30,161 nucleotides of DNA from a bacterium (GCA_021812665.1 JAKAMX010000001.1:1-30161); one strand, 5' to 3'. Positions 3,446 to 27,463 are shown, counted from the stretch's first letter. Notes: generated from the sequence alone by a model not told the origin. Translations and numbers: made by a program.

Positions 3446-3447
3446 GG

Positions 3448-3510
3448 GCTGCCGTAGTAGAGGAAGTACAAAAGATTTTTGTGTCCCCGATTGTATTACT
3501 TTGTATTTAA
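3448..3510 (+). other. Orphan recombinase C-terminal tail / att half-site 1 (AAVVEEVQKIFVSPIVLLCI*)
   Basis: Follows the degenerate core GGGCTGC; peptide similar to the tails at 7579 and 10876; no start codon. Confidence 0.6.
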
Positions 3511-3575
3511 TTTGTAATGTGCCTGGGTACTTGTTGCGCCTGCCGTCTTGTTCCTCTCCTAAAGCTGCAATTAGC

Positions 3576-5609
3576 TTAGTATGCGTTGAGTACTGCTCGT
3601 GTCCCTGGTCCAACATAACCAACAGCCGAAATACCATGCGCTTTCTGAAGAGCGGCAACACCCGCAGCGGTAAGTGGTCCGAAGTTTCCGCTGGTTGGAC
3701 CATTGTAATACCCAAGCTCAGTTAGTCTTTTTTGTAACTCAACAACCTCGTTCCCTGTCATACCCTGCTGAAGGAATAACGTGAATTGATATTTTGAAGT
3801 CGAAGCGGGAGACGTAGTAACGACCGCTCCTGACGAACAAGGAAGTCCTGTTGTAGAACTGTACCCATAGCTCGATGAGCACCCAGAAGGAAGTGTGCCG
3901 CTCGTCGTGCTTGGGATGGTTGTTGTAGTTGTGCTACCGACCGTCACCGGAAGTGCCCCGCAGTCATTCAATGAATCACACACAACAACGATGGCGTGCC
4001 CATTACCAATTCCAGACAATGAAAGCACACTTCCATTTATAGTCGCCTGCACAATATTTGAGTTAGTGTTATACGCAACAGTATAGTTGCTGTTTGATCC
4101 ACCAGAAACAGAAACACTAGTGCTTTGTCCGAGACTCAGTACTGGCCCTGTTGAATTAAAGCTCAAGAACGAAGTTGCTGTTGATGCGTTTGTTGTCGTG
4201 GGGGTTGTTTGCGTCCCGGTGACATGGAGTGATAATGACGCACACCCAGTGTTGGTTGAAGAGCAAACAGTGATTTGCGCTGAGCCAATATTCGCGCCGG
4301 TTACATAGAGCGCACCTCCACTGATCCCCGCCTGGAAAACATCGTTTGATGGAGTGATGAGGATATACGGTGTCGTGCCACCAGTGATAGCAACACTTGA
4401 TGTTTGTCCGATTCCTACTGTTAAATTATTTTGAGCAAGATACACCTGGCTCGTACTCGAGGTATTATTTACTGTTACTTTTAAACTATTACAGTTACCT
4501 GATGTAACACAAACATTGATCGTTACTGTTCCGCTTGCTGCACCCAAGAGTGTCAGAGTGCTGCCCGAAATATTCGCCTGAACAATACTTGGGTTTGTGT
4601 TCGAAGCAATATAATAGGTTGCTGCACTACTGCCAGATATTGATACGGTCATCGTTTGCCCAACAGTTAGCACCGGTGCTGTTTGGCTGAACGAGATGCT
4701 ACCCGAACTTGTGCCACCGAGAGTAACTGTGACAACGCCACACGAACTAACGTTTGTTGAACACACCGTGATCGAGTATGTTCCGCTCGTGTTACTGCTA
4801 CCACCCAAGGTAAGAATACTTCCACTGATGCTGGTGGTCACATTGCCAGAACTTGAATTACCTGAAACCATATATGACCCCGTACCGCCAGAAATAGTTA
4901 TCGCAGTACTCTGTCCGTAAGAAAGAGAAACATTACTTTGACTAAATGTCAGCGTCTGTGTTCCCCCACCCTGAACCGTCACGTTTAATGTTGGACAGTT
5001 TGTCGTATTTCCTACCGAGCAAACAGTGACAGTTGTCGAACCACTTGCGAGCCCCAAAACAGTAATTTGATTTCCATTAACCGCAGCAGATGCAATCGCA
5101 GCATTTGAGTTGTTCAAAATATACAGAGCATTTTGTGTGTTGTTGGTTGCAGTCACTGTGTTCGTCTGACCAACAGAAAGCACCAACGCAGTCTGGTTTA
5201 GCGTAACTGAATTCACTGTTGTAGTAGTCACCGTAGGCCATAAGACCGTTGATGAGATCAAGCCATTGATACCACCTACCGAGACGTATGCTGGATTGCC
5301 TGTCGTGAGCCCAAACGAAGAACTACTAAATGTGTTTGAGAAATATCCGGACGAATTGGTTGTACCGATAGCCTTGATCTGCAAAACAGAATTTGTTGGT
5401 GTGTAATAAAGAATAACGCTCGAGTTCGGATCGGCGTTCACCGCAATCTGAACATTGTCACTACTTCCCGTAGCAGTAAGATTCAACGTTGGCGTTACTG
5501 AAGCAAGCGCCGTTGCCGAGAAAGTAACAAAGGAAACGACTGATAATAAAAATAGCAGAATTTGTTTTTTCGGTTTCATATAATATAAAATAGCACAATT
5601 AAAGAACAA
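3576..5609 (-). CDS. Secreted Ser/Thr-rich surface protein with five Ig-like repeats and a C-terminal peptidoglycan-binding domain (start probably ATG at 5579)
   Basis: Signal peptide MKPKKQILLFLL...ALA; five ~80-aa repeats 'L..GQ......' each ending in a C-x4-7-C pair; 'GCSSSYGYSSTTGLPC'; PG_binding_1-like 'LQQGMTGNEVVELQKRL...G.FGPLT..GV..LQ..HGI..VGYVGP.T'. Confidence 0.85.
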   Translation of the reverse strand: MFFNCAILYYMKPKKQILLFLLSVVSFVTFSATALASVTPTLNLTATGSSDNVQIAVNADPNSSVILYYTPTNSVLQIKAIGTTNSSGYFSNTFSSSSFGLTTGNPAYVSVGGINGLISSTVLWPTVTTTTVNSVTLNQTALVLSVGQTNTVTATNNTQNALYILNNSNAAIASAAVNGNQITVLGLASGSTTVTVCSVGNTTNCPTLNVTVQGGGTQTLTFSQSNVSLSYGQSTAITISGGTGSYMVSGNSSSGNVTTSISGSILTLGGSSNTSGTYSITVCSTNVSSCGVVTVTLGGTSSGSISFSQTAPVLTVGQTMTVSISGSSAATYYIASNTNPSIVQANISGSTLTLLGAASGTVTINVCVTSGNCNSLKVTVNNTSSTSQVYLAQNNLTVGIGQTSSVAITGGTTPYILITPSNDVFQAGISGGALYVTGANIGSAQITVCSSTNTGCASLSLHVTGTQTTPTTTNASTATSFLSFNSTGPVLSLGQSTSVSVSGGSNSNYTVAYNTNSNIVQATINGSVLSLSGIGNGHAIVVVCDSLNDCGALPVTVGSTTTTTIPSTTSGTLPSGCSSSYGYSSTTGLPCSSGAVVTTSPASTSKYQFTLFLQQGMTGNEVVELQKRLTELGYYNGPTSGNFGPLTAAGVAALQKAHGISAVGYVGPGTRAVLNAY

Positions 5610-5705
5610 TATTGCGTATATACCGTATACGAGAAGAAATCAGAACTTGATGCGAGACGAGTAAATTATAATACTTGAAACGCTAGATTTCGAGGCTTGA
5701 AAACA

Positions 5706-5733
5706 GGCCAGCCGGACGATTGTCCGGCTGGCC
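5706..5733. terminator. Terminator hairpin for 5740-6258
   Basis: GGCCAGCCGGAC-GATT-GTCCGGCTGGCC with A- and T-rich flanks. Confidence 0.8.
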
Positions 5734-5739
5734 TTGTTT

Positions 5740-6258
5740 TCAGATCTTTCTACTATCGTACGCCCAGTGCAACAATGCCTGTCTTTGTCTCGGTCTACAG
5801 TGCGCATCACCCGCCCTGCAATGTGCCCTGATCTGAGCGATATGCCTCGTCATCATACGCCATCGCTTGATCTGTCGAATATCCTCTGCCGGAATTCGTC
5901 GCCCCATATAATATCTGCAGTACCACTGGAACCATCCGCGCGGATCATCTTTGTAGATCCACCCCTTCTTTTGCCAGACTGAAAGTGGCTGGCTTGCATT
6001 GATTTTAAAGTAATTCAGCTCCGGATCATGTGTGTATATCCCCTTCTTCTGAAATTTTGCCTTTGTAAACCAGCTCTTTGGAAATTCTTTCGTGCAGTCT
6101 CTCATATAAACTCCGCCGAACACGCCAAGCGCGAGCATTTCTTTCGGAGAGAGATCTGGTTTGAATTTCGGATCAAAGTTCTTGCCTACCGGCTCGGTAA
6201 GCTGGTATGTATATCTCTTTTGCGTGCGGTCGTTGACCGTCACCAACTTCTTCTTCAT
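5740..6258 (-). CDS. Conserved hypothetical protein (DPRGWFQWYCRY motif)
   Basis: 172-aa ORF overlapping the TspO stop by 4 nt; Trp/Arg/Cys-rich, conserved-looking motifs; no function assignable. Confidence 0.8.
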   Translation of the reverse strand: MKKKLVTVNDRTQKRYTYQLTEPVGKNFDPKFKPDLSPKEMLALGVFGGVYMRDCTKEFPKSWFTKAKFQKKGIYTHDPELNYFKINASQPLSVWQKKGWIYKDDPRGWFQWYCRYYMGRRIPAEDIRQIKRWRMMTRHIAQIRAHCRAGDAHCRPRQRQALLHWAYDSRKI

Positions 6259-6758
6259 ATATTGAGCGCGACAATAGAGTAGTTAAGATAAACAGCAAAA
6301 CTGACCCAGAGGATATATGGGAGCAGCAAATACATCGCTGTGCGCGAGATTTTATAAAACGATACCATCGTAGCGAGTATCGCGATCCACAGCGCAACAA
6401 TGTCATAGAGCGCAAGCGTAGGATTATGCAATCCAAAAAAGAAAATGGACCAGAGCATGTTGAGCACCAGTTGAACAAAAAAGAGAATCAATCCCCTTTT
6501 TCGATCCATCGCAGTTATCTCTGATTTATTTTCCCAAACGAGAAACACCGAGATACCCATGAGCAAATACAAAAGTGTCCACACAGGACCAAACACCCAC
6601 GAAGGTGGGTTGAGCGCAGGCTTTAACAAAGTGACATACCACGAAGAAACTGACGAGACGGTGAAAACAGAACCAGCAATCCCCGCCAATTCACAAACAA
6701 CGATAGCAAAAACGACTTGAGAGACACGCTTGATAGTAAGGTTGTGCATTGCAGTCAT
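6255..6758 (-). CDS. tspO: TspO/MBR family tryptophan-rich sensory protein
   Basis: 'WY..L.KP.LNPPSWVFGPVWTLLY.LMG.S', 'LFFVQLVLN.LWS.FFF', 'LLLPY..WVSFA..LN'. Confidence 0.95.
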   Translation of the reverse strand: MTAMHNLTIKRVSQVVFAIVVCELAGIAGSVFTVSSVSSWYVTLLKPALNPPSWVFGPVWTLLYLLMGISVFLVWENKSEITAMDRKRGLILFFVQLVLNMLWSIFFFGLHNPTLALYDIVALWIAILATMVSFYKISRTAMYLLLPYILWVSFAVYLNYSIVALNI

Positions 6759-6842
6759 TGTATCATTTTGTTTTTGATAATTGATAGGCGCCGAAACATG
6801 CGCCCGAAGAGCGTCTTGCTGCTCTCCGCTTTTGCCGTATCA

Positions 6843-7289
6843 CTACTTAAAAAAACTAGCGCCAACCAAGACGACTCCTGCCCCAAGAAGACACCCCGAC
6901 ATTTTTCCAACAGCGGAGCCAAGAACAGTCCTTTTGTCGTCTACGGCCAACGCGGCCCAATATCCCTCAAAAATACCCGCGACCCCATCAGTGATCGCAT
7001 TGCCAACCACACCACCGATTATTGCTCCAACAACACCCGCTAGTTCTCCGCCGACTACAGCCATTACCGCGAGAATTCCATTATCGATAACACCGAAAAC
7101 AATGTCCGGCTTAACAGCTGAAATCTTTATATTAAATAGTTTCAATGAAGCAAGGCAAAGAAAAGCGAGGGCAACGAGGACGTACCCGATCAAATTCGCT
7201 TTATAGACGAAAAAAGTACTTACAAAAAAGATCACCGCACAGAGGACCAAAATATTTAATACTGAGGTTAAAAAACTTTTCTTTGTCAT
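6843..7289 (-). CDS. TMEM65/VIT-like membrane protein
   Basis: 'IVFGVIDNG...GN.ITDG.AG' resembles the TMEM65-type 'FG..DN...GN..SD..G' pattern; Gly-rich TM helices. Confidence 0.5.
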   Translation of the reverse strand: MTKKSFLTSVLNILVLCAVIFFVSTFFVYKANLIGYVLVALAFLCLASLKLFNIKISAVKPDIVFGVIDNGILAVMAVVGGELAGVVGAIIGGVVGNAITDGVAGIFEGYWAALAVDDKRTVLGSAVGKMSGCLLGAGVVLVGASFFK

Positions 7290-7378
7290 ATGAAGGATTA
7301 TAGCATCCAGTGCCTAACACTGTTAGGCACTCCCAGAAAGCCAAAGAGGTCGGGCAATTTGTCCGGCTACTTGTTTTT

Positions 7379-7577
7379 GGGTGCCTACTGGGAATTATCA
7401 CAAGTTGCTAAGTCTGCTCGTGTGAGTACACACTGCGCGGACTAAGTACTCGCGATCCCGCCTCGCCGTTGCTTCGCAACATGCTCCGGCTTTCAAATCC
7501 CAGCCGCAAGCAAAGCAGTTTGCTTGCTTAGGCACCCAAAATAAAAAAGCCCACCTCGTGTGGGGCTTTTTTATTTT
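7379..7577 (-). repeat. tRNA-3'-end-derived structured element, His-type copy 2
   Basis: Starts GGGTGCCTACTGGGA and contains the inverted TTCAAATCCC...TAGGCACCC; perfect 21-bp inverted repeat at 7532-7552/7563-7583. Confidence 0.85.
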
Positions 7578-7578
7578 G

Positions 7579-7674
7579 GGTGCAGTCGTAGAGGAAGTTC
7601 GAAAAGTTTTTGAAGATAAAAACAGCACGTCTATCTACATTCCCGCTTTCTCAACAAAAGAAGGCTCGGGCTAG
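7579..7674 (+). other. Orphan recombinase C-terminal tail / att half-site 2 (GAVVEEVRKVFEDKNSTSIYIPAFSTKEGSG*)
   Basis: Follows the GGGTGC core; GGT-GCA is in the same register as the integrase GGT-GCC at 27434. Confidence 0.7.
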
Positions 7675-8111
7675 TTCCACTTCCCTTTCAGCTTGAGATA
7701 TTTGATGGGAATAATGAGCAAAGAAACAATTACGAAAATTGCAGTAAACACTAGTGCAACCAGGCCAGGGGTTAAAATATTTGGTACTCCCCAACTTCCA
7801 TTACCTTCTGGAGTAATTGCGGTAAGGATGACAGTGAGTGGAATCCACCAATACGCAAACTTGAGCCAGGAGTAGAAAACTTCGTCACGGATTTTGTAGG
7901 TGATGAGAGAAATTAAGAGTATTGTAGCTCCCATATATAGGCCGAGAATAACAAACGGTTTTGAAATGTAAGCGGTGTCATAGCAGTATTTTGAACCCGC
8001 TGACCAAACTCCGATATTTCTGCAAAAACCAAATATTAATGGGTTACTAACGATATAAACTCCAATAAACACTATGAGCGAGGCCCAAAACACCGTTTTT
8101 TTAGATAGCAT
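7671..8111 (-). CDS. Hypothetical membrane protein (3-4 TM helices); possible immunity partner of the upstream lipase
   Basis: 146-aa hydrophobic ORF starting 7 nt after the lipase stop. Confidence 0.75.
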   Translation of the reverse strand: MLSKKTVFWASLIVFIGVYIVSNPLIFGFCRNIGVWSAGSKYCYDTAYISKPFVILGLYMGATILLISLITYKIRDEVFYSWLKFAYWWIPLTVILTAITPEGNGSWGVPNILTPGLVALVFTAIFVIVSLLIIPIKYLKLKGKWN

Positions 8112-8118
8112 AATTTTG

Positions 8119-10800
8119 TTAATAATCTAATATAATCTTTCCCTTGTTCGTAGTTGCTCTTAGAATAACAAGCCCTGGTAATGTTTTGGCGTCACCTGTT
8201 GTAGTATTTTGTATCTGTGTTGCATTCTTTTTTGCGTTGTAATGCGCCTGAATACTTTGTGTTCCGCTTGTTACCAATTCTTCAAGTTCTTTGAAGCTCC
8301 CTGTCTTATCAGTAGACCATTCATATTGTAATACAGTTTGAGATAATTCATTTGTGGATACACCATTGTAACTTAATCCCTGAATTTGAACATTGAGCTG
8401 GTGACCACTCTGGGTATTTTGAGAGTAGGTAATCTGCAGTGTGTTATTCCCTTGATCTGCAAGGAGCGAGGAGGTCGCGATAGTTGATATAGATGTTTGT
8501 GTATCGTCAATACCCTCAATCATGAGATTCATAGCGCTTGCGCTCAACGAGAGACGTGCCTCTGGTGGGGTGAGATCAGGAGTGACAATTTTCCCAAGCT
8601 CTGGCTTGATAGTGAAATCGGTACGACCATCACCATTGTAATCAACGAAAAGTGGCGAGGCGTTTTGGATCGTTCCATCAGTGAGGGCTATTGTCGCTTT
8701 AGTACTTGTCGAAGTAGGAACAGCTGCTATTGTGCTCGAGGCGATAATTGAATCGTTTCCATCTATCTCTTGCATGTCGAGCGTAAAGGAGCCAGATGCA
8801 TAGCCATCGAGATTTAGCGTTACTGGGGCGTGATTTGGAGTCGTTATTACTTGGACTTCGCCATATCGACGATAATCAGAACCAGGAATAGTTGAAGTTG
8901 CATAGTTTATAATGTTACCAGCACTGTCGATAGCGGATAGGTTGAGGGGCGAATGAAGAGTGAATCTAAGACGATTTGTTTTTACAGTCAATGGTTTTGT
9001 TGTTGTAATAAAATCTGGAAGAGTGCTTGTTGCACCAACAAGAATATCGTTGACTAAATTTCGTAGCTGTGGGACCTCGAAGATATCGGAATGTTTCCGA
9101 TCATACGGTAATAATTTTTGTGGAAAAGTATTGTTGTATTGATATAGATCAACCCAATATTTCGTCACTCCTGCTGCCGCAGGCGTCCATAATGCACTCG
9201 GTGAAACAACAGTACCATCGCCATCTACTACTTCATATGGTGTATATTTTATAGTAGGAATATCTACATAATTAGAGCACGTAGTCGATGGCGAAGATCC
9301 ATTCGCACAAACGCTATCCTCGCCCTGGTAATATTGAATCGTTGCAAGCGTATCCTCTCCCCACCCAGCAATTTCATACAAGGGCACGCCCTGCGGTGGC
9401 ACCCATGCGTCAAGCGTATTGTGGACTGCGTTTGCGTTGGAGAGCAGTCCCGCATTTCCTACAGCAGGATAATCCAAGTCGCTTGGCGACGAGGAAGCTA
9501 GACGCCAGGTATCTGTAATAAAGTTTGCAAGACGATCTGCAGAATGAATCTCGTTGCCATAGCGAGCACGAAAATCGGCAAGGATATCTGATTTATCAAA
9601 TGTCACAACAGGATTATCCACATACGTAAAATAGTTTGCTGAAGGAAGTAGGTTGTATGTGGCTGGTGTTGTGCTAGCAAAAGTGCGTGCTGTTTGTGGA
9701 TCTAGGGCGTAAGGCATTTGCGTTGTTGGCAAGCCTTGATCAAAGCCATGAAGAAGCGCGCCAGCCGCTTCAGGGGTACCGACCTCAGGAACTGCAACAA
9801 AGATTATTTTATCAATGAGTTTTGACGCTTCGCTCCCCAGCTTGTTGGTAAGTGCTTTCGCTACAAGTCCTCCGTTGGAATGAGCGACAATCGTTACCTT
9901 TCCTGTCTTTGATGAAGCCGCAAGGCGACGAAGATCTTGAATGATATACGGGGTGCTCGTTGCCCCCTGAACACCTCCATAATAAATACGATCATCTGAA
10001 AGCTGGTTTCCTGAATTCAGGATATCATCGAGTGATAATCGCCAATCGTACGGAGCTGTATCCCAGTCATTGATCGTTCCTGCGCTTTTGAGTCCATTCA
10101 TCTGGTTAATAAATGACTTATACACGTTACCTATTCCAGGCAGATATGCAGCATCAATCACTCCTTTGTCGTCACTGTTCGGATTGATATAGATATCATT
10201 CCGAATACTTTTACCTTGATCATTTAGATACAGATCGGGCGTACTATTACTAAAAAGACCAGGCTCCCAAAGTTTTTCTGTTCCACCATTGTAATCAGGA
10301 CGATAGAGTCGTGAGGCTTCAACACCTGGCAAGAAAAGAACGTTTGAGTAACAGTTCTCAGTACAGGCAGGAGACGAAGTAGCAATAGTGAGATCAGATA
10401 AAGTTGAGCTTGCGGTAACGTTATAAAGTAACCACGCATCGTGCCCATCATGGTCGCCCCAGTTGTAAGTGAGGAACGCAAAATTCCCAGGACCAAAGCT
10501 ATTTAGTGCTGGAGGTTGGGAATAGTAATCACCTGAACCCAAAAGAGCAGAACAAGAATAATTTATTCCTGAGACAAAAGAGGGATTTGTACAGATCCAC
10601 CAAAACCCAACAGGATGACTAAGGGGGTTATCTGCCAGCGTCGCTTGATAATGCGGATAAACATTCCCAACCGTGGGTATATTAAACGCTGCAGGATTAT
10701 TTATAAATGCAAAAGAAACTTGAGGAACTACTAAAAATAAACCAATTATTAGTAGTTGTTTACGGGCAAAGGCTTCGGTAATACGTCGCCAGAAAATCAT
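8119..10800 (-). CDS. Secreted alpha/beta hydrolase, LCAT/PGAP1-like lipase or acyltransferase (893 aa)
   Basis: Signal peptide; 'VLFLPGVEASRLY'; 'PYDWRLS'; nucleophile 'IVAHSNGGLV'; 'DGDGTV'; 'HSDI'; beta-rich C-terminal extension. Confidence 0.85.
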   Translation of the reverse strand: MIFWRRITEAFARKQLLIIGLFLVVPQVSFAFINNPAAFNIPTVGNVYPHYQATLADNPLSHPVGFWWICTNPSFVSGINYSCSALLGSGDYYSQPPALNSFGPGNFAFLTYNWGDHDGHDAWLLYNVTASSTLSDLTIATSSPACTENCYSNVLFLPGVEASRLYRPDYNGGTEKLWEPGLFSNSTPDLYLNDQGKSIRNDIYINPNSDDKGVIDAAYLPGIGNVYKSFINQMNGLKSAGTINDWDTAPYDWRLSLDDILNSGNQLSDDRIYYGGVQGATSTPYIIQDLRRLAASSKTGKVTIVAHSNGGLVAKALTNKLGSEASKLIDKIIFVAVPEVGTPEAAGALLHGFDQGLPTTQMPYALDPQTARTFASTTPATYNLLPSANYFTYVDNPVVTFDKSDILADFRARYGNEIHSADRLANFITDTWRLASSSPSDLDYPAVGNAGLLSNANAVHNTLDAWVPPQGVPLYEIAGWGEDTLATIQYYQGEDSVCANGSSPSTTCSNYVDIPTIKYTPYEVVDGDGTVVSPSALWTPAAAGVTKYWVDLYQYNNTFPQKLLPYDRKHSDIFEVPQLRNLVNDILVGATSTLPDFITTTKPLTVKTNRLRFTLHSPLNLSAIDSAGNIINYATSTIPGSDYRRYGEVQVITTPNHAPVTLNLDGYASGSFTLDMQEIDGNDSIIASSTIAAVPTSTSTKATIALTDGTIQNASPLFVDYNGDGRTDFTIKPELGKIVTPDLTPPEARLSLSASAMNLMIEGIDDTQTSISTIATSSLLADQGNNTLQITYSQNTQSGHQLNVQIQGLSYNGVSTNELSQTVLQYEWSTDKTGSFKELEELVTSGTQSIQAHYNAKKNATQIQNTTTGDAKTLPGLVILRATTNKGKIILDY

Positions 10801-10856: not shown

Positions 10857-10878
10857 TTGACAAAAATTGACGATGGGT
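10857..10878 (+). repeat. 22-nt direct repeat with 17551-17572
   Basis: TTGACAAAAATTGACGATGGGT vs TTGACAGAAATTGACGATGGGT (21/22). Confidence 0.85.
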
Positions 10879-10968
10879 GCAGTAGTAGAGGAAGTTAGAA
10901 AGGTTTTTGAACTACGGAACAGTGTAATGACTCCCATTCCCAACATTGTTTTAGGAAATATTTTTTAG
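10876..10968 (+). other. Orphan recombinase C-terminal tail / att half-site 3 (GAVVEEVRKVFELRNSVMTPIPNIVLGNIF*)
   Basis: GGGTGC core; first 12 residues identical to tail 2 despite synonymous codon differences; in frame with the integrase if joined at the core. Confidence 0.7.
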
Positions 10969-12087: not shown

Positions 12088-12131
12088 GCCATTATTCTTA
12101 TTAATGTAATAAAATTTAGTCTGCGATGATT

Positions 12132-12163
12132 ACGTTACTATTTGAATTGTAAAATTCTGTAAG
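12132..12163 (-). promoter_or_regulatory. Putative OmpR-family box plus -10 element (site 1)
   Basis: Minus strand CTTAC-N5-TTTAC-N11-TAACGT upstream of the DUF347 gene. Confidence 0.55.
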
Positions 12164-12164
12164 G

Positions 12165-14198: not shown

Positions 14199-14200
14199 AT

Positions 14201-19012: not shown

Positions 19013-19089
19013 GGGAAAAGTATAACAAAAAAATAATTTTAGGATTACATGATTGCTTAGTAGAACCATATCGTCCTTAATAATGTGCG

Positions 19090-21072
19090 TTAGCCCTTGC
19101 GCACTGACATAAACCCAGAATGTCTTGCGTCTCGTGTGTCAACAATAAAATTCCCATTTATCCTTCTCAGGTCAGGCATAAAAACAGGAGTTGGCCCCCC
19201 ATTCATAAGAAAATTATCTTCAAATACCTCCCTCCCTCTTGCCATTGCTGTATCAAAATCAGCGTAACCAAGAAGCGTCGTTTCAAGAAAAACCATCTTA
19301 TCCTTATCGCTTTTATCTCCCCAACCAATAAACGCATGTGTCGGTGTTAAAAAGATCAAAGAATAAACACCAAATCCCTCCAACAGGCTTGAGAAAAGCA
19401 CGGTCAGATCGATACAATTGCCTGCGTTATTTTCCAAAACCCGCTCTGGCAAGATAACTCTTTGACTACCCATCGATGTCTTAGACGAAAATGGCTGATT
19501 AAGATAGGTCATTCCGTTTTTTGCCAGATAGTCATACAGAGCCCTCACGTGAGCAATAAGATCTCCTAGAGTATTTAATTTATGCCCAAGAGCATTGTCT
19601 GGATGAAATGCTCGGGCGCCACTGCGAACCTTATCCAAGAGACCCTTCTTGTCTGTTGGGGTAATCCACGCACAAACAAAATCTCGCAAATTATATGTCT
19701 GGTTACTTCTTAAGTCCTGCAACTCCCACACCATTTCATCGTTCGCAAGAATATCAACGTTAAAATTTTCTTCAAAAAGTACCTCTTTCCTGTCCTCGTC
19801 AATTACCCGACATAACATTGTTGCCTTTACGGGGACAGCGAGATTTTCTAGAACATCCTTCTTAAGACGAGGGCACTGAGCTAAAATATTTCTCGCTTTT
19901 TGTTCCTTCTGATTATGTATTCCGTGTATAAAAATTGTTTTGGTCTCTTTCTCTGAATAACCACATATCTCTGTTTCTACTCGTAACCTTAACTTGTTTT
20001 TAGACAAATTGAAAATGTCATATTCAACAAGAACATCTCTATAGTTGGGAAGCTTTTGAATTTGCTCATAAATACGTGACGGTAATGATCTCTGAATTGT
20101 TCTGACAATAACATCAATATTTTTATCTTCAGGGATAAGGATCCCAAAACCAAACCGCAGGGTCTCATAATCACCTAACTGAATTGGTTTAGAAATATCA
20201 GCTTCTTTTTTCTTGATGATTTTTAGAATTTCTTCTTTAGAAGCTCCGTCAAATGCGGACTTAAGCTCCTGCTCTAAATTAAATAACGGGAAAGTCCCCC
20301 GATAAGGTAACGCGGGGCGGAAACGAGGCATTCGTGGCTCATACGACTCTAATTTATCAAGTTGATACTGAAACCACTCAGGAAAAACCTTCGTAGTTTC
20401 TGGTTTAACCCTCCAGGCAATTGGCTCAATATCATACTCCCCTGAACTCACTACTGAAATCTTCTCAAAAAGAACTCTCCCGAACGGGAACAGTGGTGCA
20501 AATTCAAAAGTTGCCGCATTTGCCTCAAGTAGGATCCTTGCTTCGTATTTTTCACCAAAGCAGAGATCTGAATAAAATACTGAGGATTTCTTATTGTAAT
20601 AAACATAATTCTCATCACCTGGCATCTCAGTCAGTGGAGGAAAACTTGATGGCATCAATAAAATGTCCGCATCTGCATCGTAGACAACCTCAACTTTTTT
20701 TCCACTTCGAAACAAATCAACCCCAACTACCTGTAAATATTTATTTAGCATTAAAGAAAATAATGGTGCTGGCGCAAAAAAGAGCTTGCTCTGTTTAGGA
20801 AATCTTTCAAGGAGATTATCAGTTCTCATGAATTTCCAATTTTCACCCTCATACAAATTTTGTATAACATCTTCTGGTCCATTTATTAAAAATGAAAAGG
20901 AAACTTCCATTTGTCGGAAATTTTTAATTTCAACCTTAAAAAATTTAATCAAACACTCAAGGTTGTCATATTTTGCTGGATGATAATGCTCTGTGACACC
21001 TCTTATTTGTGAAAGATTTCCACCACTAAAACTATTGGTAAAGGGGTAAGTTCTTGGTACGGGTTTAGTCAT
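19090..21072 (-). CDS. Protein with a C-terminal transglutaminase-like Cys-protease domain (660 aa)
   Basis: 'YDYL....Y...P.....QRV.LPERVL....GNCIDL..LF.S.LE..G.......P.HAF.GW....FLETT' Cys-His-acid triad; N-terminal ~300 aa unrecognised. Confidence 0.7.
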   Translation of the reverse strand: MTKPVPRTYPFTNSFSGGNLSQIRGVTEHYHPAKYDNLECLIKFFKVEIKNFRQMEVSFSFLINGPEDVIQNLYEGENWKFMRTDNLLERFPKQSKLFFAPAPLFSLMLNKYLQVVGVDLFRSGKKVEVVYDADADILLMPSSFPPLTEMPGDENYVYYNKKSSVFYSDLCFGEKYEARILLEANAATFEFAPLFPFGRVLFEKISVVSSGEYDIEPIAWRVKPETTKVFPEWFQYQLDKLESYEPRMPRFRPALPYRGTFPLFNLEQELKSAFDGASKEEILKIIKKKEADISKPIQLGDYETLRFGFGILIPEDKNIDVIVRTIQRSLPSRIYEQIQKLPNYRDVLVEYDIFNLSKNKLRLRVETEICGYSEKETKTIFIHGIHNQKEQKARNILAQCPRLKKDVLENLAVPVKATMLCRVIDEDRKEVLFEENFNVDILANDEMVWELQDLRSNQTYNLRDFVCAWITPTDKKGLLDKVRSGARAFHPDNALGHKLNTLGDLIAHVRALYDYLAKNGMTYLNQPFSSKTSMGSQRVILPERVLENNAGNCIDLTVLFSSLLEGFGVYSLIFLTPTHAFIGWGDKSDKDKMVFLETTLLGYADFDTAMARGREVFEDNFLMNGGPTPVFMPDLRRINGNFIVDTRDARHSGFMSVRKG

Positions 21073-21097
21073 CTCGATTAATTTTAGATTACTAAAT

Positions 21098-22162
21098 TCA
21101 AGAAAACTTCAAGCGAGTTCTAAGAGAAGCGACGTCTCGCCATCCCACCAATCGGTCATGAGAAAGTCGGCCTGCAATAATGCCGGGGTCTAACTTTATA
21201 CTTTTAGCAAAGCCAAGTATTGCCCTTTTTGAAAAATCTCCTGCGCAAAGAAAGTCTGAGTAGGATTTATGATCAATTAATTCTCTGGTTGCAAAATTGT
21301 CTGCCTCAATTTCTTTCTCTTGAGAATCCGAAAGTGGCCTCTCGTCAAATTCCAAAAACCTTTCTTTTTTACCATGAAGAAGGATGTGTCCAATTTCGTG
21401 AAACAAATTAAACCAAAACATGTCAGCATACGCACCAAACAAACTTAGCTGAATTACAGGAGTATCACCAATCCAACGCACAGCACCGCTCACTCCTGTC
21501 TCGGTAAAATGAGGAATATAGACCAACGAAACCCCAGCGTTTCCTAATATCTGTTGCGCCTCAACAGAAAATTTATCTGCCGTTTTTGTTGTAAGAGCTC
21601 GCAAACTTTTAAGCGAATCCTTGAGAGCGGCCTCTGAGAATTTTTCAATTGTTACTTTCTTTGATTCAATTTCACCACACCTCAACCATGCAGCAATCCC
21701 CTCGCTCCTTACCCCAGCAACCGTTCTCTTCCTAAAAGCAACAGCTTCTGTATTTGCAACAAAAGACAATGAATTAACTCCAAAAAATTTCCAGAGCTCC
21801 TCAACTCTTTTTTCTCTGATATTTGTCTGTTCGACATACTTTCTCTTCGCGAGCTCTAAATATGGGAACCTAGACAAAAGGGCTGTCTCTGCTCTCAAAG
21901 AAGAAAATTTTTCAATTCGAGCTTTTGTCTCCTGAAAATTTTTCTCCAAATTAATCCAGAACGAAGCAGTTCCGCCCAATGCGTTCTCAAACAACAATGC
22001 GGTTTCAACAGTGATAGATGCCTCGCCATTTATGATCTGGCTTAAATGCTTTTCTGTTAGACCAGTACGCTCGCTCAGGTTTTTCTGTGTCATCCCCTCT
22101 CTTTCTAGTGCGCGAGCGATGGTGTGTCCTGGGTGTATTGCTTTGTTTGGTTGGTAAGCCAT
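21098..22162 (-). CDS. higA: HigA-family antitoxin: XRE HTH fused to an ImmA/IrrE (M78) metallopeptidase domain
   Basis: 'IHPG', 'MTQKNLSERTGLTEKHLSQIING', 'FWINLE', HEXXH 'FHEIGHILLH', 'E.EADNFA'. Confidence 0.9.
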   Translation of the reverse strand: MAYQPNKAIHPGHTIARALEREGMTQKNLSERTGLTEKHLSQIINGEASITVETALLFENALGGTASFWINLEKNFQETKARIEKFSSLRAETALLSRFPYLELAKRKYVEQTNIREKRVEELWKFFGVNSLSFVANTEAVAFRKRTVAGVRSEGIAAWLRCGEIESKKVTIEKFSEAALKDSLKSLRALTTKTADKFSVEAQQILGNAGVSLVYIPHFTETGVSGAVRWIGDTPVIQLSLFGAYADMFWFNLFHEIGHILLHGKKERFLEFDERPLSDSQEKEIEADNFATRELIDHKSYSDFLCAGDFSKRAILGFAKSIKLDPGIIAGRLSHDRLVGWRDVASLRTRLKFS

Positions 22163-22166
22163 ATTT

Positions 22167-22505
22167 TTATTTATGATAATCCTTAAAAATCTCTAAAATT
22201 AATATTGAGGTGATTGTCTTAAAATTATCGATTCGAAAATTTTGGTCTCCATCATGGTTGGGGCGGAAAATGACTCTATGCTTGCTGGTAACATCAACAG
22301 CAAAACATTTTTTATAGGAGCCCTGTAGAGGATGTGGGCGATAACTCCGAGGAACGTCTGCGAGGGCATCCGCGGCGCGGAGAACTTCAAAAGTTGCGAG
22401 AATATCATCAGCGAATTCTTGTCCATTTTTATTATATTTTTTGCGCAGAGCATCATGATTATTAACCAGAGCTTCATGCTTCTGGTTATCGAAATCTATT
22501 TTCAT
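22167..22505 (-). CDS. higB: HigB/RelE-like toxin
   Basis: 112 aa directly upstream of higA; 'RPHPLQG.YK..FAVDV..KHRVIF.P', 'I.ILEI..DYH'. Confidence 0.85.
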   Translation of the reverse strand: MKIDFDNQKHEALVNNHDALRKKYNKNGQEFADDILATFEVLRAADALADVPRSYRPHPLQGSYKKCFAVDVTSKHRVIFRPNHDGDQNFRIDNFKTITSILILEIFKDYHK

Positions 22506-22533
22506 GATAGCATAGCTGGCTATTGTAGGTCAA

Positions 22534-22564
22534 ATTATTATTTACCATATTGGTAAATAATAAT
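22534..22564. promoter_or_regulatory. Perfect 14-bp inverted repeat; probable HigA operator
   Basis: ATTATTATTTACCA-TAT-TGGTAAATAATAAT, 29 nt upstream of the higB ATG. Confidence 0.6.
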
Positions 22565-22607
22565 ATACCACCCAATAAAAGCAGCTGCAAGCAAAACAAT
22601 ATACCCA

Positions 22608-23663
22608 TTATTCGGCAACCACTTGTGCCGGCGCAATAATCCTCTCGATTGTCGCTTTCCACTTAGCCTGGCTCGGTGCTTTTACGCGGAGGTAGTCAAA
22701 GTGATTAGGTAGCACAATGTTCCCACCAAGAAGCGTCTCTCCTGATTCTTGGGTATTACCAGAGGCAGTATTGAATCCAATGATATATGGAGTTCCTACG
22801 ATTGTTGCGTTCTCGTCATAGTCAACAACGCCATATTCCCAGCTTGCCATGCGAAGCTGAATCTGTTCTCCATCAAGACCTGTTCCCTTCCCAAAATTTT
22901 CATTAAGAGGGCTGTTTGACCACTCAAGGCGAAAGAACCACTCAGCCTTAGGAATTGAATTATCAAATGTTACAGCACCGAGAGATTGAGACCCTGCCCC
23001 GTTCCACGACTTAATAATTTCTGTCTGCGCAGGGATTGTCCTAAAAGTTGGCTGTGGGCAACCAAGTTTTTGAGCGATCGATGCAATAATCGTCTGCTGA
23101 CTTGAGCGGGGGCTCAAACCTTGTGTCCAATCATAAAAAGCGAGGAGATGGACATTATCCAAATTGTTTATTTTCCCAGAAACACAAGTTTTCCAATTAC
23201 TAGATCTTGAATAGGAAGGGACCAGTGCGGTAAACCTTGCATCAGTTTTTGAAAGAAGGGGCGCATTACTAGTGACAACTTGTGTGTCCTTTACACTCAA
23301 AACACTCCCACTACTTTTTACATTTGATTCTGGGGTCTCTTTTTGTAATGAAACGGTGGATGGTCCGGGAAGTTGTTCTTTTGCAAAATTCTCAACTTGA
23401 GGAGGGTTCACAATAAAAGCTACAAGGGCCACAACGAACGATGCAAGAGTAACGACGCTTTGCATTTTCCAAACAGGAATCTGAGAATATTTCTCTCTTA
23501 AAAATTTTGCAAGTGGCGGAAAAAAGATAATCGCTACGGGGAAAAATAAAATCGATATTGCAGGCATTCCAAAGAACCCAACAGCGCCAAGTAACCCAGA
23601 GACGATAGATACACACCAGCTCGCGAACAACAACAAAGCACTCCCGATAGATTTTAGATTCAT
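22608..23663 (-). CDS. Hypothetical membrane-anchored protein
   Basis: Three N-terminal TM helices, Ser/Pro/Thr-rich linker, soluble C-terminal domain. Confidence 0.8.
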   Translation of the reverse strand: MNLKSIGSALLLFASWCVSIVSGLLGAVGFFGMPAISILFFPVAIIFFPPLAKFLREKYSQIPVWKMQSVVTLASFVVALVAFIVNPPQVENFAKEQLPGPSTVSLQKETPESNVKSSGSVLSVKDTQVVTSNAPLLSKTDARFTALVPSYSRSSNWKTCVSGKINNLDNVHLLAFYDWTQGLSPRSSQQTIIASIAQKLGCPQPTFRTIPAQTEIIKSWNGAGSQSLGAVTFDNSIPKAEWFFRLEWSNSPLNENFGKGTGLDGEQIQLRMASWEYGVVDYDENATIVGTPYIIGFNTASGNTQESGETLLGGNIVLPNHFDYLRVKAPSQAKWKATIERIIAPAQVVAE

Positions 23664-23697
23664 AAAATTACTTTGCTCCTACAAATTAAAAACCAGC

Positions 23698-23883
23698 TTG
23701 TAAAAACCTGGTGGGTAGGTACACAAAGCCCGCCACCAGGAGGCCTTGCGGCCATGCATGAGTTTCCCCATGCAACGTACAGCACGCCCTGAATGACGGG
23801 TTTTCTATGCTGTACGATTTGCAACCATACCTTAAGCATTTGAACTCCTAAGGGTTAGGTCGACTTCCTATTCAGTTGTAACC
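23698..23883 (-). ncRNA. Candidate structured 5' leader RNA (multi-stem, two GNRA tetraloops)
   Basis: Minus strand stems: CGTACAGCA/TGCTGTACG; TGCATGGG-GAAA-CTCATGCA; GGCC-GCAA-GGCC; CCTGGTGG/CCACCAGG; -10-like TATCAT just upstream. Confidence 0.5.
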
Positions 23884-23936
23884 TAATGATAGCTCAAAAT
23901 AGCTTAAAAACCAATATTTTGTTAACATTTTAACAA

Positions 23937-24584
23937 ATGACACGAGTAGAAAAGATGTATCAAGATATTGCCTGGGTTCTCACAGAGATCAGGCGCCAGA
24001 ATTCAACTGACGGAAAACTAAACGAGGTTGGTTATTTTGAATTTGAGGAAGGTCCAAATATTCCCCCTATAACACAACAAGAAGCTATCGCAAAATGGTC
24101 CTTGCAAGAAAAAGGAGTACTTAAGGTTATCAAGAAGATCACGAAGCAAGCTTTTGTTAAGCACGAATACGGCAGTGGTTTAATGACGGTTGATGATGGA
24201 TTAGAAATTAAGATCAACGTTGCAAAATTTGAGGAGCTAGAAAACTCAATAAACCAAAAGATTCCTGCACTCAAAAATGCAAAAAGAATACCAATCACAC
24301 TAAGCGACAAAGATGGAATATACAGGAACGATGGAAAAGGTAAACAATATGGGATCAGCAAAAAACGCAAAGCGCTTCTTTTCTTAATAGCAAAAAAGGG
24401 TCGCGTGAGTTTGCCAGAACTCCAAAAAGAAACTGGGCGTAGCGAATCGAGAATTTCTAGCGAAATAACTGAAATAAATAAAGTTTTCCGGGATAGCTTA
24501 ATGCTAGCAGACAATATTATTATTCATAACAACACAGGCGGATATTCAATAAACAATACTGTGTTTGAGATTAACCTCGAGTAA
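23937..24584 (+). CDS. Hypothetical protein with C-terminal winged-helix DNA-binding domain
   Basis: 'LL.LIAKKGRVSLPELQKETGRSESRISSEITEINK...IIIHN..GGYSIN'. Confidence 0.7.
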   Translation: MTRVEKMYQDIAWVLTEIRRQNSTDGKLNEVGYFEFEEGPNIPPITQQEAIAKWSLQEKGVLKVIKKITKQAFVKHEYGSGLMTVDDGLEIKINVAKFEELENSINQKIPALKNAKRIPITLSDKDGIYRNDGKGKQYGISKKRKALLFLIAKKGRVSLPELQKETGRSESRISSEITEINKVFRDSLMLADNIIIHNNTGGYSINNTVFEINLE

Positions 24585-24614
24585 CCGCTTTACCCCCTGT
24601 TAATAACTTTTTTG

Positions 24615-24640
24615 AAAACCCCTTAAACAAAGGGGTTTTT
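24615..24640 (+). terminator. Intrinsic terminator
   Basis: AAAACCCCTT-AAACA-AAGGGGTTTT followed by TGCTTTTT. Confidence 0.7.
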
Positions 24641-24702
24641 GCTTTTTATTTTCCTTAAAAGCGTAACTGACGCGCAGCCATGCTTTTTAATACAGTGTGC
24701 AT

Positions 24703-24825
24703 ATGAGGAAGAAGAACGCACAAAAAACAACAGAGAACAACCCGACAGAGAAAGAGGTTGATCTTTTTATTGAGCGCCTCTTGGATATCCTCATTACACA
24801 AGCAGAACTTTCTGCAGAAAAGTAA
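24703..24825 (+). CDS. Small 40-aa protein (not in the ORF track)
   Basis: MRKKNAQKTTENNPTEKEVDLFIERLLDILITQAELSAEK*; amphipathic C-terminal helix. Confidence 0.55.
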   Translation: MRKKNAQKTTENNPTEKEVDLFIERLLDILITQAELSAEK

Positions 24826-25094
24826 TTTGTATCTCTGAGGGTTACTAATCTTATTGGTATTCCTCAGAGCTGCAAAAGCTCAGTCGTACGGGGTGTACCT
24901 GTAGCACTGAAAGACGACTATAAATAAAACTTTCGAGATTATGGGCGACCGACTGAAGGTGACCGATATACGCATGATGTACCACCCGGGGAGTAAGGGG
25001 AACAAGAGTAAGTGGTAATGCGGTTGAGGGAGCAGGAAGGAGGGAGGTGTGGGGCAGAGGAAAAGGTCCTATAGTCAATTAATTAACAAACAAC

Positions 25095-25454
25095 ATGAAC
25101 AACCAAACAAAACACGTGCGCGTATCAACAAAAACACATAAAAAGTTAAAGACAGAGGCTGCTTCAAACAACACCTCAATGACACTTCTTCTAGAAAAGA
25201 AACTATCTGAACAGGAACCAGAATATTTTGACGAATACACTGTAACCACAGATTCAACAGTTTTCAATCGTATAGCAATCGAACAGCTTGGAAGAAAACT
25301 CACGCGGGACGAGCTCTGTGATATTTTCGAATTCCTAGGGGGCGAAGTAGACGGTATTACAACCGAGCGTATCCTAGAGTTGCCGGGACCAAAGAAGAAA
25401 ACGAACTATGAAGTGCTACCAAAAGCAACAAATGATACAGTTGATGATTTTTAA
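25095..25454 (+). CDS. Hypothetical protein with N-terminal ribbon-helix-helix-like segment
   Basis: 'KHVRVSTKTHKKLKTEAASNNTSMTLLLEKKL' is CopG/Arc-like. Confidence 0.6.
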   Translation: MNNQTKHVRVSTKTHKKLKTEAASNNTSMTLLLEKKLSEQEPEYFDEYTVTTDSTVFNRIAIEQLGRKLTRDELCDIFEFLGGEVDGITTERILELPGPKKKTNYEVLPKATNDTVDDF

Positions 25455-25460
25455 AGGTAT

Positions 25461-25811
25461 ATGAAATACAACAAAGATATATCTCTTCTGCATCAAGAAA
25501 AAATAAAGGAAATTATTCTCGACGATTCCGGGGTAAGCTCGAGCTATATTTGCCGAGAGCTCACAAAGAGAGGCCTCAAACTTGGAAGAAATTATGTGAC
25601 CAAGCTCGTCAAACAGGCAGCGCAAGAAATTGCAGAAGAAAAGAGAAACCTACGCGACGCCAAAGAGAAGAATCTCCCCTCTCGCATCGAGCAATACAAC
25701 ACCCTCATCTCAGCTCACGACGGAATAGAAAAGCATCTCGAAGAACTAAAGCTTGTGATCAGGGAACTCTCGGAAGAGCTCCCGATTGAGCACAGAAAAA
25801 GTTTTTGGTAA
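25461..25811 (+). CDS. Hypothetical HTH / coiled-coil protein
   Basis: 'SSSYICRELTKRGLKLGRNYVTKLVKQ' is HTH-like; directly upstream of the recombinase. Confidence 0.6.
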   Translation: MKYNKDISLLHQEKIKEIILDDSGVSSSYICRELTKRGLKLGRNYVTKLVKQAAQEIAEEKRNLRDAKEKNLPSRIEQYNTLISAHDGIEKHLEELKLVIRELSEELPIEHRKSFW

Positions 25812-25864
25812 TCCTCCCCTTGCTATATTCGTGATTACGAGCATTCTATGTATTAAACAAAACC

Positions 25865-27463
25865 ATGAACAAAGCACTTATCTACTGCCGAGTATCCACC
25901 GAGGAACAAGCAACCTCAGACCGACATTCGCTTAAGACACAATTAAACCTCTGTGAAAAAGCCGTCGAGGATGGTGGTTTCAAGTTGGCCGAAAACGGAG
26001 TCTACCAAGACCCGGGACGAAGTGCTACAAACATGAACCGACCAGGACTGCAGGACATGATGGTCCGTGTTTCGGAGGATAAAGACATCACGGCTGTCTT
26101 CGTGCAGGATTCAGATCGACTAACGCGAAATGTAAGCGATCACCTAACCATCAAAGCGTTCTTGAAAAAGCATGGGGCACAACTTGTCTCGGTTTCTCAA
26201 TCGGGCATCGAGGACACCCCTGAAGGAAACTTCATGGACCTCATCATCGCCGGAGTCGGGCAATTTCAATCGCAAATCACGGGACGCAAAACGATCAAGA
26301 GTATGGAGCAAAAGTTCAAAGATGGTGGGTGGCCCACCCATGCCCCTATTGGCTACCTAAATGTTGGCGACAAAGAAAACAACGAAGAGAGAATCGTCGT
26401 CATTGATGAAACGCGAGCACCGCTCATCAAAGAAGCATTCAAAATGTATGCGACTGGAAACTATTCAATCATTGAGGTGCGTGATGCACTATATAGCAAA
26501 GGATTTACTGCGCGCGGAGGTAAACTATTACAGCACAGCAAAATGGTCGATATGCTAAAAAACCATTTTTACTATGGAGAAATGCGGTGGCGCAAAATGT
26601 CGAATACAGGCAAACACACACCGATCATCGACAAGGAAACTTTCGACAGGTGCCAACTAGTTATGGCAAATAATCAAGGCGGGCGATGTCGCAGAAGAAA
26701 GTTTAACTTCATTCTTCGTGGGTATGTATGGTGCGGGCGTTGTGGATACCGCTACACCGCCGAACACCACCCAAAGAAAAACAAGAGTTACTATCACTGC
26801 AACCACTACGGCAACAAGATTCCGAATAGCACCATCACCTGCGCCGATCGCTATGTGGAAGTTGATGACTTGGAGAAGCAAGTTCGAGACCACTTTGACG
26901 AGATCCAATTTTCAGAAGCATTCATAAAGAAAATCGAAGGTAGGCTTCGCTTTATATATGAATCAAAAAAGAATGCAGTTACTGGAACAAAGAGTCGCCT
27001 TGTTCAACAAAAGCTAACGCTCGAAAAGAAACTTGAGGCCGCAGAGGAAAAACTTATCGATGGTGTCCTCGATGACGATGGGTTCGACCGCGCAAAAAAG
27101 CGCTACCGAGAGCAGATCGAAAACCTTGAGGAACAGATCAACAAACTCGACCGAACGAAAAACATAAAAGTGGACGTCATCCAAAAAGTTCTTCTGATGG
27201 TTCGAGATATCGGGCAAGCATACGAAAAAGCAGACCCTGAACTCAAGCGCCTTTACCTTGGACTTTTCTGGGAAAGATTCGAAGCAGAAAACCGACAGAT
27301 TACTATAGCTACTAAATCCCCCATCATAACAGCGCTAGAGGCCGCAGGAAGCGTCTCGTATCAAGAATTGACCAATGTACCAAGCGCAGAAAATACCACT
27401 CTTGGAAATGAAGTTATATTAAACTCCTTTAGGGGTGCCTACAGGGATTCGAACCCTGGCTGA
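25865..27463 (+). CDS. Large serine recombinase (integrase)
   Basis: Catalytic 'YCRVSTEEQ', 'RPGL', 'DRLTR', 'P.GY', recombinase domain, Zn ribbon 'CGRCG...YYHC...C', coiled coil; last 10 codons antisense to tRNA-His. Confidence 0.95.
   Translation: MNKALIYCRVSTEEQATSDRHSLKTQLNLCEKAVEDGGFKLAENGVYQDPGRSATNMNRPGLQDMMVRVSEDKDITAVFVQDSDRLTRNVSDHLTIKAFLKKHGAQLVSVSQSGIEDTPEGNFMDLIIAGVGQFQSQITGRKTIKSMEQKFKDGGWPTHAPIGYLNVGDKENNEERIVVIDETRAPLIKEAFKMYATGNYSIIEVRDALYSKGFTARGGKLLQHSKMVDMLKNHFYYGEMRWRKMSNTGKHTPIIDKETFDRCQLVMANNQGGRCRRRKFNFILRGYVWCGRCGYRYTAEHHPKKNKSYYHCNHYGNKIPNSTITCADRYVEVDDLEKQVRDHFDEIQFSEAFIKKIEGRLRFIYESKKNAVTGTKSRLVQQKLTLEKKLEAAEEKLIDGVLDDDGFDRAKKRYREQIENLEEQINKLDRTKNIKVDVIQKVLLMVRDIGQAYEKADPELKRLYLGLFWERFEAENRQITIATKSPIITALEAAGSVSYQELTNVPSAENTTLGNEVILNSFRGAYRDSNPG

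Follow-up and report, generated by a model that had tools for sequence, protein, structure and literature searches.

A candidate accretion zone at a single tRNA-His gene of Patescibacteria, with the attP of a serine integrase placed inside the integrase gene

The window, that is, the whole 30,161-nt stretch JAKAMX010000001.1:1-30161, comes from a 0.69-Mb genome of Patescibacteria and contains a large serine recombinase gene that runs into a tRNA-His gene. We believe, with a probability of about 0.8, that positions 1631-27431 form an accretion zone at this single tRNA-His, that the zone is driven by a serine integrase with attP inside its own gene, and that the orphan integrase tails along it are attL scars. 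The crossover would occur within GGGT, at a Gly codon of the integrase itself, nine codons before the stop codon of the integrated form. On the circle, or when the tail of a neighbour lies directly downstream, the integrase gene would run about 25-45 codons further and so include a conserved tail. This tail would be split from the gene when the element integrates at the acceptor end of tRNA-His. It would then form the P' half of attL at the opposite end of the element, and the integrated integrase would close instead with eight tRNA-antisense codons. Each new insertion at the tRNA core would push the earlier units away from the tRNA. In this way four orphan tails would have arisen in one orientation and one register, three of type B (3446, 7578 and 10875) and one of type C (17569), and the older units would be integrase-less remnants or cis-mobilisable units.

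The integrase, its target and the orphan tails

The translated open reading frame (ORF) 25865-27463 (532 aa) ended in ILNSFRGAYRDSNPG and a stop codon. Judged by its domains, it is a large serine recombinase. Pfam matched Resolvase (PF00239, E=4.4e-29, residues 4-156), Recombinase (PF07508, E=1e-14) and Zn_ribbon_recom (PF13408, E=2.8e-10). These Pfam matches were serine-recombinase domains only, and no tyrosine recombinase fold was among them. The YCRVSTEEQ motif and the catalytic Ser11 were retained, and R9 and S11 were invariant in the 55 homologues compared. The resident integrase is full length and has every family-invariant residue, and it is presumably active. In an AlphaFold2 (AF2) model of the homologue P0012, the catalytic, recombinase, zinc-ribbon and coiled-coil parts were all confident, and two long helices (351-447) followed the zinc-ribbon region. 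Hundreds of homologues were found, nearly all of them in Patescibacteria. The IMG/VR viral contigs scanned with the integrase profile gave no relative above 32% identity, which indicates that the integrase is not from a recognised phage family. The sequence P0001 was the single member of its 90% cluster, so no near-identical long-tailed copy is on record.

The final 32 nt of the integrase ORF overlap tRNA-His(GTG), the sole tRNA-His of the genome, in antisense. A preliminary description of this DNA had claimed that the integrase reads through GGGTGC into the antisense of tRNA-His, and the translation and the overlap confirmed it. Relatives in reference genomes at 42-66% identity all lay in antisense at the tRNA-His 3' end. 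Integrase clades at a greater distance adjoined tRNA-Asn, tRNA-Lys or tRNA-Ser. At the loci of the relatives, synteny was kept on the tRNA side (tRNA-Leu; L19 and a pseudouridine synthase in several) and not on the other side. This indicates that the tRNA is chromosomal and that the integrase side is the insert.

The sequence GGGTGC was present at 7578, 10875 and 27433 (junctions J3, J4 and J6 in Table 1). GGGTGC alone was not significant (15 copies in the window vs 8.4 expected). A 37-nt word made of the core and the tail (GGGTGC and the 31 tail nt that follow it) matched at 7578 and 10875, with no more than 3 mismatches, and had 0 matches in 100 shuffles. A degenerate copy at 3446 (GGGCTGCC, J1) had 84% identity over the 37 nt. 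Elsewhere in the 0.69-Mb genome, the tail motif was not found beyond this contig. In the codon register of the integrase, the core was followed by AAVVEEVQKIF at 3448 (tail 1), GAVVEEVRKVFEDKNSTSIYIPAF at 7579 (tail 2) and GAVVEEVRKVFELRNSVMTPIPNI at 10876 (tail 3), each frame running on to a stop codon. Over the first 36 nt, tails 2 and 3 differed three times, each time synonymously (chance about 0.015). The recurrence of core and tail in one register and the synonymous differences had both been described before, and both held. The earlier count of three orphan tails did not: repeated insertion at one tRNA core was supported, and there are four tails of two families. The fourth tail follows J5 and comprises 45 codons in the integrase register. 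It aligned with the C-termini of P0090 and P0107-P0120 (type C), and a hidden Markov model (HMM) gave E=9.5e-17 at J5.

The C-termini of 116 homologues were classified. The tRNA-antisense peptide (YRDSNP... and variants) was present in 54 of the 116, 48 stopped at or just past the RG(G/A) junction, six had a type-B tail and eight a type-C tail (..IITLLxDxEYMxxLKEKL..). P0012, P0014, P0063 and P0066 ran on as ...G-AVVE(E/D)VRT.F...NDATIYIPD in the same register as the motif of the window. Full-length homologues carrying the tail, which the preliminary description had proposed to look for, are therefore on record with the same RG-A junction. Their continuation across the junction supports its proposal that attP lies inside the 3' end of the integrase gene. 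Another genome provided an independent attL/attR pair (L102, integrase 42% identical), with its own orphan tail (G followed by PIVEDIRTVIQEKVGHIYIPALV and a stop codon) 9.2 kb from its integrase. The shared sequence was GGGTGC at J3, J4 and J6, GGGT only at J5, and TGGGGT in the L102 pair. The GGT codon register was kept at all four orphan-tail junctions of the window. The crossover would thus fall within GGGT at 27433-27436, overlapping the Gly codon GGT at 27434-27436. A crossover at this Gly codon means that the protein always switches after ...G.

The summed column entropy at codon positions 1, 2 and 3 was 18.4, 13.7 and 28.7 bits, respectively (20 tails, 15 loci, 24 codons), and third positions varied about twice as much as second positions. 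Equal conservation at the three positions, which had been named as evidence against a coding tail, was not seen. In this alignment the tail shows a coding-type substitution pattern along all 24 codons. The stretch GTTAGAAC (codons Val-Arg-Thr) was nearly fixed at the DNA level too, which is expected if it is also the P' half-site. The type-B tail HMM matched 35 of the 401 Patescibacteria genomes sampled, nearly always in open frames of <100 aa, and often two or three tails lay within a few kb. The type-C model matched 8 of the 401, with short open frames (44-108 aa) in seven besides this one.

Arrays of 2-3 orphan tails, 0.6-3 kb apart, were seen at L203 (G176:C40), L204 (G375:C29), L205, L206 and L214. 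Several of them lay on a contig without an integrase, and two tails of L203 were at most 2.5 kb from tRNA-His.

The locus was compared with that of congeners. In G407, the DUF1189 orthologue lies 65 nt from tRNA-His, which is an empty site. By this comparison, the 25.8 kb between 1631 and 27431 are all hot-spot content that varies among congeners. The same gap was 3.7 kb in G402 and 8.8 kb in G411. The tail motif was not found in G407; its presence in relatives with an empty tRNA-His locus had been named as evidence against the proposal. The array had been described as extending from 3446. The variable zone starts at 1631, and tRNA-trailer elements are interleaved in it.

The repeated motif may also be read as an independent small ORF, or as a DNA element, regulatory or terminator-associated, that follows cargo operons. 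All copies have the last minus-strand cargo gene on one side and a hairpin terminator on the other, and GTTAGAAC is nearly invariant as DNA. However, full-length recombinases carry this peptide as their in-frame C-terminus, and the orphan copies lack a start codon and are in frame with the core. The copies sit beside tRNA genes or in arrays, and the empty-site congener has no motif. We consider this explanation extremely improbable.

Table 1. Features of the tRNA-His locus in the window
Feature	Position	Strand	Basis
DUF1189 gene, conserved chromosomal gene to the left of the tRNA-His hot spot	779..1630	-	Pfam PF06691
Oldest variable segment: 153-aa ORF, SMR-like gene, hemerythrin; no recognisable att scar	1631..3226	-	Pfam; missing from matching congener position
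Trailer unit U1, native-type tRNA-His downstream flank, B arm of J1	3227..3445	+	
Junction J1: degenerate core (GGGCTGCC) and decayed type-B tail, AAVVEEVQKIF then unrelated residues	3446..3510	+	
Cargo 1: PG_binding_1 protein (677 aa), 172-aa protein, TspO/MBR, 148-aa protein; no integrase	3576..7289	-	Pfam
Trailer unit U2, second tRNA-His trailer	7348..7577	+	
Junction J3: core GGGTGC and type-B orphan tail 2 (31 codons, GAVVEEVRKVFEDKNSTSIYIPAF...)	7578..7674	+	
Cargo 2: 146-aa protein, 893-aa LCAT-like lipase/acyltransferase; no integrase	7671..10800	-	Pfam
X arm, left arm of J4 (TTGACAAAAATTGACGATGGGT)	10857..10878	+	
Junction J4: core GGGTGC and type-B orphan tail 3 (30 codons and stop); candidate attL of a 16.56-kb element	10875..10968	+	
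Cargo 3a: DUF347 protein, ABC-2 transporter, histidine kinase and OmpR-type regulator, DUF5666-like protein	11197..17363	-	Pfam
Junction J5: X' arm, core GGGT (17569-17572), in-frame type-C tail (17570-17704, GQGGLSFLTILADHEYMTGVKEKLQLI...)	17551..17707	+	
Cargo 3b and accessory module: YafQ/HigB-like, HTH-Peptidase_M78, transglutaminase-like 660-aa protein, unknowns, LOOT RNA	17670..25811	mixed	
Large serine recombinase, 532 aa, integrated (short-tail) form ending ...NSFRGAYRDSNPG and stop	25865..27463	+	Pfam domains
tRNA-His(GTG), target gene (B' arm), sole tRNA-His of the genome	27432..27505	-	
Junction J6: core at attR	27433..27438	+	

Left arms, insertion history and competing readings

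The trailer unit U1 consists of terminator H1 (3227-3257), a pseudo-tRNA-His 3' end (3267-3280), trailer A1 to about 3420 and hairpin H2 (3412-3440). U2 consists of hairpin H2' (7348-7368), a pseudo-tRNA-His 3' end (7379-7392), trailer A2 to about 7550 and terminator H1' (7550-7564). The two units had 94% identity over 99 nt, with the hairpin order swapped. The type-A repeats in them (3267-3420 and 7379-7550) start with 14 nt of the tRNA-His 3' end. The trailer family gave 27 nhmmer matches in the 0.69-Mb genome. Of these, 21 immediately follow tRNA genes, which are of many kinds, and most copies end in a duplicate of the 3' end of their own tRNA, from the T-loop on. Because the family sits behind many tRNAs, each trailer unit with its hairpins is, as far as these matches indicate, the native downstream flank of tRNA-His and the B arm for J1 and J3. 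The repeats were also considered as att scars of a second integrase family; this was rejected because they belong to a genome-wide family behind different tRNAs.

J4 and J5 have another left arm. The X' arm (TTGACAGAAATTGACGATGGGT, 17551-17572) repeats the X arm (10857-10878) at 22 of 24 nt, and the 22-nt arm TTGACAnAAATTGACGATGGGT stands directly left of one type-B junction (J4) and one type-C junction (J5). Only these two copies of the X arm were found in the window and across 29 genomes of the genus. An origin as a remnant of the integrase 3' end was rejected, as no homologue ends similarly and the DNA matched the P arms at only about 9 of 24 nt. A response-regulator box of the cargo two-component system was rejected too, since there are two copies only, both at junctions.

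The units 3446-7578, 7578-10875 and 10875-17569 (units 1, 2 and 3a) are bounded by core and tail junctions and encode no recombinase. From core to core, the four units measure 4.13, 3.30, 6.69 and 9.86 kb, with the integrase in the last only. The preliminary description was right that the older cassettes carry no integrase; their spacings are those given here, and the third ends at J5 (17569), which it did not describe. J5 is the attL nearest the integrase, 9.86 kb away, and its tail family differs from type B. The sequence of events at the tRNA-proximal core would be trailer A1, unit 1, trailer A2 and unit 2 (right end X), then unit 3a (right end X') and the integrase-bearing unit 3b with tail C. 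Strictly sequential insertion at this core reproduces the arm order from J3 to J6. It would need units 1, 2 and 3a to arrive or remain without an integrase, with right ends that serve as the next B arm. Alternatively, 10875-27433 may have entered as one 16.56-kb composite, with attP joining the integrase to tail B3.

Several observations weigh against the accretion model. The dyad symmetry of the reconstructed attP was modest, 14/28 around the boundary between GTG and C (12/28 at the same place in the natural attP of L001). In the AF2 model of the long-tailed P0012, residues 503-555 had a pLDDT of 31-40 and the tail was unplaced, so no structural role is indicated; its only structure was a short helix (528-538) over VEEVRTIFEKR. 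In the clade of the resident integrase, the long-tailed members (P0012, P0014) have type-B tails, yet the nearest orphan tail (J5) is type C, which makes the cognate attL (J5 or J4) ambiguous. The model does not account for the homologous left-arm pairs X/X' (22/24 nt), which flank unit 3a, and H2/H2' (80% over 54 nt), which flank unit 1. No remnant of an integrase 3' end was found beside the core in the integrase-less units. They end precisely at the core, which simple decay does not predict.

Signs of present movement were also absent. No attP or empty-attB joint was found at any core in the Logan contigs of four runs, which hold the organism at 7-15x word depth with the array intact and which drop rare variants. 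A degenerate attP pattern for the junction of integrase and tail gave 0 matches in JGI metagenome contigs, and an exact tRNA-His word search returned two unrelated organisms only. All 14 of the 14 public contigs with cargo 2 had the same arrangement, as did all public assemblies of the species. As no junction variants were seen, the mobility proposed here is a historical one.

Several of these assemblies break near 7540 (trailer/terminator repeat) and inside tRNA-His (27489). Breaks at such places indicate that the structure of the array is easily lost in short-read metagenome-assembled genomes.

It is possible, though less likely than not, that the array is a pure fossil. Complete elements would have inserted serially, the older ones would have lost their integrase by deletion, the tails and arms would have no function, and the resident enzyme may be inactive. 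The identical arrangement in all public assemblies agrees with this. Tail 1 is degenerate, tail 3 leaves the family consensus in its second half, and the segment 1631-3226 is scar-free, as continuing decay would give. However, deletions at random should have spared parts of the integrase 3' end at the core and none was seen, the resident integrase has kept its full length and all family-invariant residues, and tails 2 and 3 differ only synonymously.

The precise unit ends are in line with discrete mobile cassettes. In this case, circles made of right arm, core and tail would have been inserted in trans, as in integrons or cis-mobilisable elements (CIMEs), and would have supplied the integrase with a new tail. 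Units 2 and 3a carry unrelated cargo but agree at both ends, in the X arm (22/24 nt) and in the opening 37 nt of tail B (92%). In L203 and L210, tRNA-His directly adjoins integrase-less units of 0.6-1.5 kb, and the sequential insertion described above gives the observed arm order. Long-tailed integrases were found on linear contigs, and terminal overlap, the sign of circularity, was absent from the long-tail contigs L001, L002 and L212. The same idea was raised by McMurdie et al. for the ssrA islands (PMC3146451). Against it, the tRNA-proximal ends of integrase-less units are not conserved in the arrays of other genomes, which argues against a defined two-armed cassette att site. The X arm is unlike the integrase-borne P arm, tails 1 and 3 have decayed past codon 12, and no circles were detected in the Logan contigs of the four runs or in the JGI contigs. 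In addition, the rule for large serine recombinases is that both half-sites are required and that attL-like sites are not recombined (PMC3783163). We regard such cassettes, and with them the integron-like array served by one enzyme of the preliminary description, as rather unlikely.

In L002 (9988-11670) and L003 (10001-11683), the integrase is long-tailed (type B) and its contig is linear, with no tRNA nearby and with pyrimidine-biosynthesis genes 3-7 kb upstream. Both loci fit a chromosomal state with the tail supplied by a downstream neighbour, and the full-length form may exist in an integrated state.

By analogy with phage Mx8, the tail may modulate the activity, direction or stability of the integrase; the preliminary description had suggested a possible switch of this kind. 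Going further, the orphan tails could be working parts: the P' half-site of the cassettes would double as an exchangeable C-terminal module, and a cassette landing downstream would re-equip the integrase with a type-B or type-C tail and alter its activity or direction. We consider this doubtful and give it little weight. If true, it would be the serine-recombinase analogue of an integron, with cassettes that reprogram the recombinase.

Cargo genes and tRNA trailers

Every cargo gene between 3576 and 23663 is on the minus strand, in agreement with the earlier statement that the cargo is co-oriented. Cargo 3b also holds three small plus-strand genes upstream of the integrase. A second Resolvase-domain protein (DsiA-like) was not found among the 30 window proteins scanned. 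Cargo 2 was considered as an element-specific gene and rejected, as homologues are common in ordinary chromosomal contexts of Patescibacteria. The integrase-bearing unit contains YafQ/HigB-like, HTH-Peptidase_M78 and transglutaminase-like 660-aa genes at 17670-22505, and this part looks like a toxin-antitoxin or defence-type operon. A LOOT RNA (Rfam RF03000) was found at 23741-23861 on the minus strand, with 70.8 bits vs a gathering score of 46.4, and separates the cargo from the plus-strand genes next to the integrase. The Rfam scan gave no match at the tails or trailers.

Copies of the trailer element, 100-200 nt long, were found in the window at 3267-3420, 7379-7550 and 27935-28134, and in the G000 contigs C3, C6, C19, C29, C32, C37, C47, C51, C61, C64 and C66. 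In the sense of the tRNA, the order is tRNA, short hairpin, conserved body (...GACTTAGTAACTCGTGAC), duplicate of the tRNA 3' end (T-loop to discriminator) and second terminator. By this layout the trailers look like the product of T-loop-targeted insertion. The pseudo-tRNA-His ends at 3267-3280 and 7379-7392 have the T-stem and loop of the congener tRNA-His L230:11805-11830 (CTACTGGGAATT), and those of the present tRNA-His of the window (CTACAGGGATTCG) differ from them. This suggests a change in the T-arm of tRNA-His after the trailers had formed.

Significance and relation to known systems

Island finders assume tyrosine integrases and a long tRNA-fragment repeat at tRNA-gene islands (PMC4383910). 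A phylum-wide clade of serine integrases with a core of 4-6 bp would make islands of the present kind invisible to them. The orphan-tail peptide is a simple marker for these islands in Patescibacteria. Unidirectional serine integrases are a class widely used in genome engineering, and the locus offers a natural experiment on their C-terminal extension, since one catalytic body occurs with tails of type B, of type C or of meaningless tRNA-antisense sequence. The array also shows very small genomes gathering accessory envelope, transport and defence genes at one locus.

Integrons and CIME or accretion arrays are similar in having one recombinase at a fixed end and co-oriented, promoter-poor, integrase-less units, with the newest at the insertion point. 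In CIME or accretion arrays, integrase-less units bounded by att-type sites lie beside an integrase-bearing element, as here. Integrons use the tyrosine recombinase IntI, attI and a folded attC, whereas a serine recombinase, core and tail boundaries and no attC-like structure were found here. The integrases of phiC31, Bxb1, A118 and SPbeta (SprA) share the resolvase, recombinase, zinc-ribbon and coiled-coil domains, and their attP/attB core is very short (attachment sites as in PMC3783163), as it would be here. In these phage and integrative-element enzymes, attP lies outside int and the targets are protein-coding or intergenic, whereas here attP would lie inside int and the target is a tRNA gene.

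Recombination sites within the integrase gene have been reported in tyrosine recombinases. In SSV-type archaeal integrases the site is within the ORF and integration splits the gene (PMC7253208; PMC4383910). As these sources present them, they are tyrosine enzymes that are cut into two large parts and inactivated ('suicidal'), whereas only the last 25-45 codons would be removed here. IntP of the Myxococcus phage Mx8 likewise has attP inside the integrase coding sequence (PMC6070905). Integration makes a new int 3' end and alters the properties of the enzyme without inactivation (Tojo 1996 and Magrini 1999, as summarised in PMC6070905). Mx8 Int, according to that summary, comes from a temperate phage and belongs to the tyrosine recombinases, and no orphan-tail arrays are described for it; the enzyme here is a serine recombinase.

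The nearest precedent is the Dehalococcoides ssrA islands and their recombinase DsiB (McMurdie et al. 2011, PMC3146451), where accretion is also cited. Serine integrases were stated by the Islander authors in 2014 as not known to target tRNA genes (PMC4383910), and in 2011 a serine integrase overlapping its att site at a tmRNA gene had been described (PMC3146451). DsiB is a serine recombinase of about 540 aa at the island edge, with an ORF that runs across att into the target RNA gene. The islands lie in tandem downstream of one small-RNA gene, and some have no integration module and were proposed to be cis-mobilisable (PMC3146451). McMurdie et al. suggested that a complete DsiB is perhaps encoded only by the circle or by an island whose neighbour provides the 3' fragment (PMC3146451). 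The target in Dehalococcoides is tmRNA with a 20-bp direct repeat, whereas here it is tRNA-His with 4-6 shared bases. The six-gene module in Dehalococcoides includes the small serine recombinase DsiA, unlike the set of window proteins scanned here. The C-termini of DsiB were reported as divergent, whereas the tail here is a conserved peptide. New here are the tRNA-gene class of target, the core of 4-6 bp, and the conservation of the tail at the peptide level, in two families, throughout a phylum.

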